Source: a virus
IMG/VR virus record: IMGVR_UViG_3300023110_000006
Direction: 5' to 3' (one strand)
Length of the DNA stretch: 64,000 nt
Shown in pieces: positions 49,964 to 61,970 of this stretch (position 1 is its first letter; each line of letters begins with the position of its first letter). The position numbers were made by a program, and so were the translations under genes. The notes below the pieces were generated by a model that ran no database searches, was not told the origin of the DNA, and saw nothing but the letters and a program-made list of their open reading frames with translations.

Positions 49964-50006
49964 ATTTTCCTCCGCATAAATACATTATAATCGTATATAT
50001 GAATTA

Positions 50007-58024: not shown

Positions 58025-59200
58025 ATGTCAGAACTACTAGAAAGTCGCTGGCACGAGACCAAAGATGCGCTTATGGAAGGCTTAACAGGCAACAAGAAGT
58101 CTGTTATGTCAGCTACCTTAGAAAATACTCGTAAGTATTTGGCTGAGACAGCTACAGCAGGTGCAACTAGTGCCGGTAATGTCGCAACTCTTAACAGAGT
58201 TATTTTACCAGTTATCAGACGTGTAATGCCAACAGTTATCGCAAACGAACTAGTTGGTGTACAGCCGATGACAGGTCCAGTGGGTCAAATCCACACATTG
58301 AGAGTACGCTACGCTGATACAGCTGGCACAGGCGCAAGCGGTGCAGTAACAGGCGAAGAAGCACTTTCACCATTCAAGATCGCTGAAGCATATTCAGGTG
58401 ACACAACCAACGCTACGGCGGCGGCTACTGCGGCACTTGAAGGTTCAGCAGGTAACAGACTAAGCATCCAGATCTTAAAGCAAACAGTCGAAGCAAAAAC
58501 CAGAAAGCTATCAGCTCGCTGGACTTTTGAAGCGGCTCAAGATGCACAAGCACAACACGGTATCGATGTTGAAGCTGAGATCATGGCGGCTTTAGCACAA
58601 GAAATTACTGCTGAAATCGATCAAGAAGTTTTAGCTTCATTACGTACACTATCAGGTAATGCAGTACAAACTTACGATCAAGCGGCAGTATCAGGTACAG
58701 CAACATTTGTTGGTGATGAACATGCGGCACTTGCAGTTCAAATCAACAGAGCGGCTAACTTGATTGCACAGCGTACACGTAGAGGTGCAGGTAACTATGC
58801 AGTGGTATCACCATTTGCATTAACAATCCTACAATCTGCTACAACTTCAGCGTTCGCAAGAACAACTGAAGGTACTTTTGAAGCACCAACAAACACTAAG
58901 TTTGTAGGTACTTTAAACAATGCAATGCGTGTGTACGTTGATACATATGCAGGTGACGGTACAGCAGTACTAGTTGGTTACAAAGGTTCTTCAGAATCTG
59001 ATGCACCAGCGTTCTACTGCCCATACATCCCACTAATGTCAAGTGGTGTTGTGATGGATCCAGGTACATTCGAACCAGTTGTGAGCTTCATGACTCGTTA
59101 CGGATATATCGAGCTATCAAACACAGCTTCATCTTTGGGTAATGCGGCTGATTACCTAGCAAACGTTGCAATCACAAACGCAAACGTAAGCTTCAGCTAA
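58025..59200 (+). CDS. major capsid protein gp23
   Basis: GVQPMTGPVGQI, EAKTRKLSARWTFEAAQD, EITAEIDQE, FYCPYIPL, FMTRYG. Confidence 0.96.
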   Translation: MSELLESRWHETKDALMEGLTGNKKSVMSATLENTRKYLAETATAGATSAGNVATLNRVILPVIRRVMPTVIANELVGVQPMTGPVGQIHTLRVRYADTAGTGASGAVTGEEALSPFKIAEAYSGDTTNATAAATAALEGSAGNRLSIQILKQTVEAKTRKLSARWTFEAAQDAQAQHGIDVEAEIMAALAQEITAEIDQEVLASLRTLSGNAVQTYDQAAVSGTATFVGDEHAALAVQINRAANLIAQRTRRGAGNYAVVSPFALTILQSATTSAFARTTEGTFEAPTNTKFVGTLNNAMRVYVDTYAGDGTAVLVGYKGSSESDAPAFYCPYIPLMSSGVVMDPGTFEPVVSFMTRYGYIELSNTASSLGNAADYLANVAITNANVSFS

Positions 59201-59314: not shown

Positions 59315-60481
59315 ATGTTTAGACAAATTATGCACGTATTACTTGTAGTATTAGGAATACAACTAGCTACATCAAATTCAGCAACAGCAAATGTTGAATA
59401 TCCATCAAAAGCATTTGAAGGTACAAGTATTGTAACGAGGCTGTTATGGCACGGATACAAATATGACGATCCAAGACAGGGCGTTAAAGAATTAATTGCA
59501 AACTTAAAACAGCTAGATGTTAAACGTGTAGTTGTACCTATTTGTATTGATCATATTGCAGAAAAGGGAAATTGTAGTAATCCTTATGCATATGCAAATG
59601 ATGATGTACGCTTTAATGTTATACAACAACTTGTGAGTGCAGGTTACCATGTAACAATTAGATTTCAACCAGAACGAGGCAAAAAAGCTAACGGTTCTTT
59701 TGTAACTTTTGTTGAAGACGGTATTCGTAATGACAAATATATTAGACAAAATTACTTTGATCTTTTACACAAGTATGCATTGCAATACTCAAACTTTTCA
59801 AAAGATGAGCTAAGTTTTAATATTCTTAACGAACCGCATTTTAGAAAAGTTGATAGACTGTATTTGCGTGAATATACTAAAATTGCTAGACAGGCAGTAG
59901 AAATTATTCGCAAACAAAGTCCTGATAGAATTATTATTGTACAATCTATTGCAAAAAGTGCTTTTGCACATGCTCCTCTAAAAAATAAAATTTTAGGATT
60001 TGGACCTAATAAATTAGTAAAAGTATTACCATATGACAATATTATTTACGGATTTAACTTTTTCGAACCAAATTCATTTACTGAACAAAGAAATGGTGCT
60101 AGATCAGGTCTTTCGTGGAACAGCAAATGGAACAAACAAATAGAACGTGATGCAAAAACACTAGCAAAATGGTCAAACAAAAAAGGTGTACCTGTGATTA
60201 TTACAGAAACTGGTGCAGTTACATATTTTGATGGTAAAACATCAGGACCTAGTACAATCAAAGAACGTGCTATGTTTGGTGAACAAATGTACAACAACTT
60301 TGTTGACAAATACGGTATAGGTTTAACTTGGTGGGCAATGGAAAAAGACAAATCATTATTTGTATATTGCAGAGCTGTATCATTTAACAGCTGGTATCCA
60401 CAAATTAGAGCATGGGATATTGATCTACTTAAGAGCTTACACTTGTTGTCAAATAAGACAGAAATTAAAACTTGTAGCTAA
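59315..60481 (+). CDS. secreted glycoside hydrolase, family 5 (cellulase-like TIM barrel)
   Basis: Signal peptide, NILNEP acid/base motif, ITETG nucleophile motif, LTWW. Confidence 0.75.
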   Translation: MFRQIMHVLLVVLGIQLATSNSATANVEYPSKAFEGTSIVTRLLWHGYKYDDPRQGVKELIANLKQLDVKRVVVPICIDHIAEKGNCSNPYAYANDDVRFNVIQQLVSAGYHVTIRFQPERGKKANGSFVTFVEDGIRNDKYIRQNYFDLLHKYALQYSNFSKDELSFNILNEPHFRKVDRLYLREYTKIARQAVEIIRKQSPDRIIIVQSIAKSAFAHAPLKNKILGFGPNKLVKVLPYDNIIYGFNFFEPNSFTEQRNGARSGLSWNSKWNKQIERDAKTLAKWSNKKGVPVIITETGAVTYFDGKTSGPSTIKERAMFGEQMYNNFVDKYGIGLTWWAMEKDKSLFVYCRAVSFNSWYPQIRAWDIDLLKSLHLLSNKTEIKTCS

Positions 60482-60492
60482 ATAGTCTTCAT

Positions 60493-60867
60493 ATGTTGAA
60501 GCATAAACATTTGGTGGTAAGAGCAGAAGTTGATAATCCAATAATCAACAAAGCAAAAGCCACCAAATTTTTACGATCTTTAATCAAAAAAATTAATATG
60601 AAACCTTTGTATGGTCCAACTGCAAGCTATTGCAAAATGGAGGGTAACAAAGGAATAACTGCTTTTGCAATTATCGAAACAAGTCATATTGCAATGCACA
60701 TATGGGACGAATCACAACCTGCACTAGTACAACTAGATGTATACAGTTGTTCAGACTTTGACCCAAAAACTGTATTTGAACATTTAGAGTCAATGAAACC
60801 AGTAGTAATTGACTATAAATTTTTAGATAGAGAAAAACAATTCATTGAAATATTAAATAATAAATAA
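60493..60867 (+). CDS. speD: S-adenosylmethionine decarboxylase proenzyme (pyruvoyl-dependent)
   Basis: GITAFAIIETSHIAMHIW...LDVYSCSDF. Confidence 0.85.
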   Translation: MLKHKHLVVRAEVDNPIINKAKATKFLRSLIKKINMKPLYGPTASYCKMEGNKGITAFAIIETSHIAMHIWDESQPALVQLDVYSCSDFDPKTVFEHLESMKPVVIDYKFLDREKQFIEILNNK

Positions 60868-60870
60868 TTA

Positions 60871-60918
60871 TACGTTCAGCCTACGGGCCGGAAGTAGCAT
60901 TAAGCGAAGGAACGCACC
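60871..60918 (+). promoter_or_regulatory. glutamine riboswitch aptamer (glnA-motif type)
   Basis: P1 CGUUC/GAACG, P2 GCC-UACG-GGC, E-loop GGAAGUA.../GAAG, P3 GC-AUUAA-GC; begins just after TAAATA at 60861-60866. Confidence 0.8.
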
Positions 60919-60943
60919 TAAACTTTAACAAAGGGAGGGTGAT

Positions 60944-61099
60944 ATGAACTTTAAATGGGATTTAAAGAAACCCTTAGCAGATCTTAAACGTAAAATAAGC
61001 ACAAGTGCAGTACTACGTAAACGCTCAAAAGACAGCATTGCAAGACCTAAGGCCGAAAAAAATATACTATCTAAAGACTCAAGAATGCAAAAAATTTAA
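60944..61099 (+). CDS. unannotated 51-aa basic peptide MNFKWDLKKPLADLKRKISTSAVLRKRSKDSIARPKAEKNILSKDSRMQKI
   Basis: Strong GGGAGG RBS, directly downstream of the riboswitch; below the ORF track cutoff. Confidence 0.8.
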   Translation: MNFKWDLKKPLADLKRKISTSAVLRKRSKDSIARPKAEKNILSKDSRMQKI

Positions 61100-61118: not shown

Positions 61119-61147
61119 TTGACATTTAGATAATAGTTTGCTATATT
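61119..61147 (+). promoter_or_regulatory. sigma70 promoter TTGACA-N17-TATATT for the ncRNA
   Basis: The predicted +1 (about 61154) coincides with the 5' strand of the RNA closing helix. Confidence 0.75.
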
Positions 61148-61153
61148 AGTAAC

Positions 61154-61372
61154 ATAAGCAACAAGAGAGTAATTAACTTTTGTTTTTTAGTGCATCGAAG
61201 AGGCTCTTACCAGAGGGTCGAAGATGGCTAGTTAGGGGTGGTACCCAGGCATGGTTGCAGAAATGCGTTGTGTCACATCGCTCTACCGAGCGGAACTAGG
61301 CGCCCGGGATTCAGACAGGTATCTGCGTCGAAGGGTTGTAGGTGAAACCGAGTCCTACCTAAAATTGCTTAT
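61154..61372 (+). ncRNA. standalone ~220-nt structured RNA, possibly manA-motif related
   Basis: Closing helix ATAAGCAA/TTGCTTAT, two TACC-loop and two GGTA-loop hairpins, a GAAA tetraloop and a GTAGG/CCTAC stem; own promoter and terminator. Confidence 0.8.
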
Positions 61373-61380
61373 TATCTTTT

Positions 61381-61414
61381 AAGGTTTACAAAGGAGACTT
61401 TGTAAGCCTTTTTT
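61381..61414 (+). terminator. intrinsic terminator of the ncRNA
   Basis: aaggtttacaaag-gaga-ctttgtaagcctt followed by tttt. Confidence 0.88.
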
Positions 61415-61423
61415 CATTTGTGA

Positions 61424-61523
61424 TAAATACTTGTGTCAGGTAGTGTGCCGCGAGGCGGACTTATGGGGAACCAACCCCGTAGCACCTAGAACGTGCATCG
61501 GACTTCTATAAAGGAGAAAACAA
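61424..61523 (+). promoter_or_regulatory. late promoter plus structured 5' leader
   Basis: TAAATA at 61424-61429, then three hairpins (GCC-GCGA-GGC; TATGGGG/CCCCGTA; GCAC/GTGC) before AAGGAG. Confidence 0.65.
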
Positions 61524-61970
61524 ATGGGAAGACCACTTAATAAAAGATACTTCGGCGAACCAACTGCCGGAGGTAATGAAATCAAATGCGATTTTCATAA
61601 CGGGACAGCAGTTGTTGAAGGACACATTGTTCGTCAAAAAGGTAGTAAGAAATTCGTAGTAGCAGAAATCGGTGCATCAGACACTGAATACACTTGCACA
61701 TTAACAACAGGTAAACTTATGTCAGCACTAGCGGCTGGTGAAATGGGTATCACTATGTTAATGGATGATTCAGAAACATATCAAGTTTCTAAAATCACTG
61801 GACGTAAAGCAACACTAGTTGCTCCAGATGCAACAGGAACAAACGCTTATGACGGCAAGTCAGTAGCTTGGAACTTTGACGCAGATCTAACTGATGGCGG
61901 CGCACAAGTTGAAGAAGCTGGTGATGACGATACAGCAGGCGTTGATGATGACGATTTTGCTAACGCATAA
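61524..61970 (+). CDS. hypothetical protein, probably virion-associated (148 aa)
   Basis: Strong RBS, late promoter, MGRPLNKRYFG start. Confidence 0.75.
   Translation: MGRPLNKRYFGEPTAGGNEIKCDFHNGTAVVEGHIVRQKGSKKFVVAEIGASDTEYTCTLTTGKLMSALAAGEMGITMLMDDSETYQVSKITGRKATLVAPDATGTNAYDGKSVAWNFDADLTDGGAQVEEAGDDDTAGVDDDDFANA

Follow-up and report, generated by a model that had tools for sequence, protein, structure and literature searches.

The window analysed here, the 64,000-nt stretch of IMG/VR virus record IMGVR_UViG_3300023110_000006, carries a manA RNA that we consider probable to be the product of a gene of its own: an RNA of a Mosig-related phage, made as a discrete transcript of about 220–265 nt that assembles with other copies and acts as free RNA. 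The free RNA as product is indicated by a conserved promoter, paired RNA ends, a terminator that has been kept through 11 sequence replacements, and neighbours that are unrelated or independently promoted. The manA family was already known (PMC2864571), as was self-assembly through exactly these loops (10.64898/2026.07.01.735769). Found in neither paper are the self-contained gene form and the near-universal promoter, nor the divergent non-cyanophage clade and a single loop code that serves both contacts. A clade with manA as a complete gene provides the first genomic argument for the free RNA as the functional product, and the gene form supplies defined, predicted transcript ends for tests in vitro and in vivo.

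Locus and family membership

The source is an uncultured marine T4-like myovirus, with Pelagibacter phage Mosig and the Methylophilales Melnitz phages as the nearest isolates by DNA. A cmscan of the whole window gave three RNA families in a row, namely glutamine riboswitch, manA and freshwater-2, and the locus contains the following features.

58025–59200: major head protein
60871–60918: glutamine riboswitch (Rfam, cmscan, 47.6 bits)
61160–61368, + strand: match to manA, RF01745 (cmscan, 59.3 bits)
61423–61429, + strand: ATAAATA box of the late-promoter type, outside the RNA gene and serving the next gene
61444–61526, + strand: freshwater-2 (RF02980, 73.3 bits), leader of the next gene, outside the RNA gene
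61524–61970, + strand: next gene, an ORF of 148 aa without Pfam or PHROG match

A likeness to manA had been noticed in the original prediction, and it is confirmed by the RF01745 match, which exceeds the gathering score of 55.2 bits by a narrow margin and covers model positions 1–192 of 192 (E = 1.4e-12). The sister sequences L044, L052, L015, L021 and L128 score below the gathering score; the clade of the window is divergent, non-cyanophage, and located at the edge of the Rfam model.

The RNA is a manA by membership, fold and loop identities. All elements of the manA architecture, P1, P2, P3, the four-way junction P4-P5-P6-P7, P8 and P9, could be placed, and one more helix, P0, pairs both RNA ends.

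61154–61372, + strand: manA RNA body, 219 nt
61154–60/61366–72, + strand: P0, AUAAGCA/UGCUUAU, 7 bp, pairs both RNA ends
61161–67/61177–83, + strand: P1, 5' hairpin
61186–90/61359–63, + strand: P2, closing helix, UUUAG/CUAAA
61193–96/61223–26, + strand: P3a
61202–07/61214–19, + strand: P3b, GGCUCU/AGGGUC
61228–33/61294–99, + strand: P4, CTAGTT/AACTAG
61235–37/61244–46, + strand: P5, 3 bp
61248–52/61270–74 plus 61256–59/61264–67, + strand: P6, long, with an internal loop, GCA-GAAA-TGC
61278–83/61288–93, + strand: P7
61302–05/61333–36 plus 61312–15/61322–25, + strand: P8
61338–42/61354–58, + strand: P9, GTAGG/CCTAC

The stems now named P4, P6 and P9 had all been predicted and are present. Four hairpins with UACC or GGUA loops had also been predicted, and these loops are found at the expected positions, but the first hairpin had been drawn in the register CUCU/AGAG. 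This register was rejected, since a double change in Mosig, C to G and G to C, fits only GGCUCU/AGGGUC, which is also the register of the Rfam alignment and of the minimum-energy fold. A reading of the "[[[[[" in the Rfam structure line as a pseudoknot was likewise rejected; the brackets stand for P2, a nested closing helix.

The fold is more stable than shuffled sequences (z-score -2.7). Relatives were gathered by pattern scans that do not select on the kissing loops, followed by a covariance model, and 101 manA RNAs were aligned. In this alignment 88% of the cells are paired, against 37–48% in slid controls, 55 of the 59 pairs have changed on both sides, and none of 500 shuffles reaches the observed pairing values. 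The alignment of the 25 sequences of the window's clade has 81.7% of its cells paired and 41 of 74 pairs changed on both sides, again with 0/500 shuffles as high; among its helices P4 has such changes in 6/6 pairs, P7 in 5/6 and P5 in 2/3. P0 covaries as well (AUAAGCA/UGCUUAU, AAUAUGC/GCAUAUU, UAUAUGC/GCAUAUA), and P2 is UUUAG/CUAAA in the window, GGGAG/CUCCC in the Rfam consensus, and UGUAG/CUACA, GCUUUG/CAAAGC or GGAAG/CUUCC in relatives. As this covariation shows, the RNA folds with P2 as the closing helix around P3, the four-way junction P4–P7, P8 and P9. Small ORFs of 39, 35 and 43 aa are present within the manA RNA, and its substitution pattern is helix-preserving.

Predicted promoter, terminator and transcription unit

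The RNA body is enclosed by the following signals.

61119–61147, + strand: sigma70-type promoter with extended -10, 11/12 consensus matches plus TG
61119–61124, + strand: -35 region, TTGACA
61139–61140, + strand: TG of the extended -10
61142–61147, + strand: -10 region, TATATT, with a 17-nt spacer from the -35 region
61381–61416, + strand: intrinsic terminator, a 13-bp stem (61381–61410) followed by a U-run, -16.7 kcal/mol

P0 begins with the predicted +1, at about 61154, and the terminator begins about 9 nt after the closed P0 helix without overlap with the manA fold; the promoter, the closing helix at the predicted +1 and the terminator named in the original prediction are all located as described. 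A promoter match is not rare in itself, and because 10 matches of at least 11/12 are found in the window it was set aside as sole evidence. The promoter and the 4-bp loop match described below are each weak alone, so conservation in relatives carries both. The same promoter with the same spacing is found in Mosig and in all close relatives, and P0 follows the -10 box at a fixed distance of 6 nt in the window's clade. Of about 80 phage manA loci, of both the cyanophage type and the window type, almost all have a near-consensus promoter that ends 20–38 nt before P2, indicating that manA probably lies at the outermost 5' end of early transcripts throughout the family. Among the approximately 80 viral-contig loci L135–L234, nearly every cyanophage-type manA has TTGACA-16/17-TATAAT with 10–12/12 matches, ending 20–32 nt before P2. 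One contig, L214, has two manA copies 3.3 kb apart.

Eleven different terminator hairpins follow manA (in the window, L127, L124, L128, L044, L270, L282, L267, L272, L259 and L047), and in these clade copies the hairpin and U-run are located within about 15 nt after manA. The function has seemingly been kept while the sequence was replaced, as would be expected for a terminator under selection. These 11 unrelated sequences have no common antiterminator element. The two terminator arms of the window gave -5.8 and -11.8 kcal/mol when paired with the RNA body, against -8.4 and -9.7 (sd 1.8) for shuffled sequences; no riboswitch-type expression platform overlapping the aptamer was found, as these arm duplex energies are within or weaker than the shuffled controls.

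Late promoters of this type are established for T4-like phages. The motif ATAAATA is strongly avoided, with 5 occurrences on the + strand of the window against 22 expected, and all five, at 49976, 54267, 60860, 61423 and 63841, are located just upstream of genes or leaders, a pattern that fits a T4-type late promoter. In five members including the window (the others are L128, L044, L270 and L282) the manA terminator is followed by an ATAAATA box and a freshwater-2 leader. In L267 and L272 the terminator is followed by a new sigma70-type promoter. In L127 a convergent ORF of 87 aa lies behind the terminator, and a separate ATAAATAC box precedes the next gene on the same strand. In Mosig, which has no terminator here, a rubrerythrin gene comes 23 nt behind manA. 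Homology of the downstream genes was considered and rejected: the window ORF at 61524–61970 is unrelated to the Mosig rubrerythrin, and the genes after manA differ among relatives.

The window copy is not arranged as a cis-regulatory 5' UTR, being followed by the terminator at 61381–61416, a separate late box at 61423 and a leader that belongs to the next gene, and the "cis-regulatory" label of Rfam does not fit this copy. These signals argue strongly that a separate early RNA is transcribed, running from about 61154 to about 61416. The host RNA polymerase should start at the sigma70-type promoter, judging from its sequence and conservation, the first seven bases of the RNA would pair with the last seven of the fold, and the intrinsic terminator would end the transcript 10–45 nt after the fold to give an RNA of about 220–265 nt. 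A standalone early RNA in place of a cis element had been proposed from the start, and the proposal is upheld by the conserved promoter spacing, the 11 terminators, the late box that the downstream gene has of its own and the convergent gene of L127.

The freshwater-2 RNA holds the Shine-Dalgarno sequence and the ATG of the 148-aa ORF (61524–61970), and has the appearance of a 5' leader belonging to a late phage gene. On the other side of manA, an ATAAATA box at 60860 is followed by the glutamine riboswitch at 60871–60918 and an ORF of 51 aa at 60944–61099. No terminator was found between this unit and the manA promoter, and late transcripts from the glutamine-riboswitch unit may therefore read through manA.

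Leader and terminated forms across the family

An ORF starts at most 40 nt after manA in 37/71 cyanophage-type and 13/24 window-type contexts, and a terminator follows in only 12/71 and 5/24 respectively; as the pattern scans selected for either P9 or the segment running from P2 into P3, these rates are indicative and not unbiased. The leader form is therefore the majority across the family, which is not generally free-standing. The common denominator appears to be a promoter-plus-manA cassette at the 5' end of early transcripts, whatever follows, and in late-gene territory the cassette is apparently closed by a terminator. Such a 5'-end cassette with a varied or terminated downstream region is the pattern expected if the RNA is the product and not the regulator of a particular gene. 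The Rfam model and the "Cis-reg" label under-describe the non-cyanophage branch, including the relatives of Pelagibacter phage Mosig.

A tmRNA-linked subgroup has manA close behind a permuted alpha-type tmRNA, with about 10 nt separating it from the 3' CCA end, or at a distance of about 1.2 kb on the downstream side, and on other contigs it lies directly upstream of tRNA genes (set: L120:3764-4308; L004, L054, L026, L037 and others; L280/L117). With such a placement in RNA-gene clusters, processing could release manA. BLAST of the tmRNA-linked subgroup against isolated phages gave no match, and a literature search for cyanophage transcript maps covering manA gave nothing usable.

Complementarity of the loops

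Six loops of the window RNA are as follows.

61208–61213, + strand: L3, UACCAG, with UACC at 61208–11
61238–61243, + strand: L5, GUGGUA, with GGUA at 61240–43; nearly invariant in the clade, GUGGUG in the cyanophage type
61260–61263, + strand: L6, GAAA tetraloop (GNRA)
61284–61287, + strand: L7, UACC, complementary to the GGUA of L5 and of L8
61316–61321, + strand: L8, CAGGUA, with GGUA at 61318–21
61343–61353, + strand: L9, UGAAACCGAGU, only 3 bp (ACC/GGU) with L8

The conserved manA loops, L5 GUGGUR, L7 with ACC and L6 GNRA, are found here as GUGGUA, UACC and GAAA. L5 and L7 match by 4 bp and so do L3 and L8 (UACC/GGUA), while the alternative combinations give 5 bp for L3-L5 (UACCA/UGGUA) and 4 bp for L7-L8. 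As both contacts share one word, L3-L5 and L7-L8 are equally possible, and the partners are unassignable from sequence alone.

A check of the loop pairs by covariation had been called for. The complementarity is conserved in the clade but covaries very little: L3-L8 has at least 4 bp (4–5) in 11 of the 14 distinct loop sets of the clade, with no double change, and L5-L7 has at least 4 bp in 9/14. Where L7 is UCAC it pairs with GUGG in a shifted register, but the five loop sets with UCCC as L7 lose the contact, having only 2 bp with L5. In the alignment of the 25 clade sequences no L3-L8 or L5-L7 pair has changed on both sides, and the single double change of the clade, between L5 and L7, came in with the metagenome additions, in L047, where L5 goes from GGUA to AGUG together with L7 from UACC to UACU. 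With so little variation in L5 and in the GGUA core of L8 across the clade, the loop pairs rest on conservation and not on covariation.

A contact between L8 and L9 was also considered and was rejected for the window's clade, where it amounts to only 3 bp. In the cyanophage type these two loops do covary (CUGUA/UACAG, AAUGUA/UACAUU, AUGU/ACAU), with a mean Watson-Crick run of 4.67 against 4.31 ± 0.06 for shuffled partners (0/500 as high). The L3 of the clade has changed from the UGGCAxx of the family to UACCA, and now matches L8.

Comparison with known RNA assemblies

The manA family was described as a riboswitch candidate with no ligand and drawn with a tentative "pseudoknot?" (Weinberg et al. 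2010, PMC2864571), and is typed as Cis-reg in Rfam (RF01745). Five manA RNAs were solved by cryo-EM in a bioRxiv preprint dated 1 July 2026, and a pentamer or related ring underlies every assembly: decamers for three of the RNAs, octamers as well as decamers for a fourth, and an icosahedral cage of 60 subunits for the fifth (10.64898/2026.07.01.735769). The four RNAs with described contacts (A767, A28C, 67AA and A0F1) have intermolecular L5-L7' kissing, and the second contact is L3-L8' together with the L6 GNRA loop to P6' in the two long-P6 Photobacterium RNAs, or L8-L9' in the two marine RNAs. The assemblies, all of RNAs outside the window's clade, were formed in vitro at about 3 mg/mL RNA and 10 mM Mg2+; the cages are thus in vitro structures, and the preprint is silent on manA biology (10.64898/2026.07.01.735769). 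Intermolecular kissing and oligomers had been proposed for the window RNA before this comparison was made, and agree with these five other RNAs, which use the same loops (L5-L7', L3-L8'); the four loops predicted in the window coincide with the published contact sites L3, L5, L7 and L8.

The manA RNAs of Photobacterium angustum S14 and Photobacterium sp. SKA34 (manA_pho_A28C, manA_pho34_A767) belong to the same Rfam family and have the same helix plan as the window RNA. Both have a long P6 with a GNRA-type cap, an L3 complementary to L8 and an L5 complementary to L7, and the assemblies of the Photobacterium RNAs, pentamers and decamers, are held by L5-L7', L3-L8' and L6-P6' (10.64898/2026.07.01.735769). 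The L3-L8 word is UCAGC/GCUGA in Photobacterium and UACC/GGUA in the window, and the kissing pairs of Photobacterium have different words and unambiguous partners, whereas in the window one word serves both. The Photobacterium copies are bacterial and located in 5' UTRs, while the window copy is phage-borne with its own promoter and terminator. The cyanophage and marine-metagenome RNAs (manA_A0F1, manA_67AA; P-HM2, P-SSM2) have the same family and core, and share with the window a sigma70-type promoter directly upstream, L5 GUGGUR, L7 with ACC and an L6 that is mostly GNRA. They differ in the second contact, a covarying L8-L9' (CUGUA/UACAG) where the window has only 3 bp, and in L3, UGGCAxx against UACCAG; most cyanophage-type copies are at most 40 nt before an ORF and 12/71 have a terminator, whereas the window copy is terminated.

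The comparison to phi29 pRNA made in the original prediction holds for a functional analogue, a phage-encoded RNA that forms rings by 4-bp intermolecular loop-loop pairing, but not for a relative. No pRNA match was found among 4227 Rfam families, in the window at the gathering score or around the locus at E up to 1, and the window RNA, with its early-type promoter, has no relation in sequence or structure to pRNA. The pRNA acts on the portal of phi29-like podoviruses, and T4-like packaging needs no RNA. ROOL, GOLLD and OLE are RNA-only assemblies (Kretsch et al., Nature 2025, PMC12286853), and like manA they occur naturally, do not code for protein, are often associated with phages or prophages and build symmetric homo-oligomers or cages. 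They differ in being several hundred nt long, in having dihedral assemblies and in belonging to unrelated families, which have no Rfam match here.

Proposed function and alternative explanations

By homology to the solved manA assemblies, the ACC-type loops L3 and L7 most likely pair between molecules with the GGU-type loops L5 and L8, as L5-L7' and L3-L8', and pentamer-based closed oligomers would be built. The phage would then need the free RNA particle itself, and not the regulation of a downstream gene. A more specific version, which we regard as possible but doubtful, is that manA in this clade of marine T4-like phages is an autonomous early gene with a self-assembling RNA particle, formed in the infected cell, as its sole product. 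With one four-letter code (UACC/GGUA) for both kissing contacts, two topologies (L5-L7' with L3-L8', or L3-L5' with L7-L8') could give polymorphic rings or cages able to sequester, or act as scaffold for, a component of host or phage. If true, manA would serve as an RNA compartment that the phage encodes, and not as a regulator of genes.

The loop pairs might instead be intramolecular, with L5-L7 and L3-L8 locking the fold of a monomer and no oligomer formed in vivo. Loop-loop contacts often stabilise single RNA folds, Weinberg 2010 (PMC2864571) tentatively considered a pseudoknot, and RNA and Mg2+ levels in the cell are far below the assembly conditions; yet the four described manA structures pair these loops between neighbouring protomers (10.64898/2026.07.01.735769), and an L5-L7 kiss within one molecule would be sterically unlikely with the 3-bp P5 placed beside P6 and P7 in the four-way junction, so that we hold a purely intramolecular role to be unlikely. 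Slightly less probable is a cis-acting riboswitch or attenuator, with manA as a leader that senses a ligand and the hairpin at 61381–61410 as the expression platform that would gate early read-through into the gene at 61524. Its proposal as a candidate, the Rfam type, the position of most members directly upstream of ORFs and the mix of copies with and without terminator, which is typical of riboswitch classes, speak for such a role. Against it, the terminator arms pair with the RNA body no better than shuffled controls, the terminator lies outside the fold, about 9 nt past the closed P0, and the 11 unrelated terminators have no antiterminator element in common; moreover the downstream gene has its own late box and structured leader, L127 has a convergent gene behind the terminator, and L267 and L272 have a fresh sigma70-type promoter past it.

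A generic module that protects or insulates RNA ends, with no function of its own, either as a stable 5' cap or as the 3' end of the upstream late mRNA against RNases or read-through, would agree with the burial of the 5' end in P0, with the position of manA at the very 5' end of early transcripts family-wide, and with its location downstream of the late glutamine-riboswitch/51-aa ORF unit without a terminator between. Such a role would need far less, however, than a four-way-junction fold of about 200 nt whose loops are invariant and whose non-helical modules are conserved, and the terminated copies leave no message to protect, making it a highly improbable explanation. The reading as a free, assembling RNA made from its own gene is the one we prefer.

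Other features of the locus

The trio of glutamine riboswitch, small ORF and manA is also kept in L127 and L124. The region of the glutamine riboswitch (60869–60951) has 79% identity to a stretch annotated as "SsrA" in the Melnitz phages MZ577095-98, where either the riboswitch abuts a tmRNA gene or the annotation covers the riboswitch. Between the major head gene and the RNA cluster, positions 59315–60867 carry an ORF of the GH5 cellulase family (PF00150, E = 5e-17) and an ORF similar to S-adenosylmethionine decarboxylase (phrog_3125).
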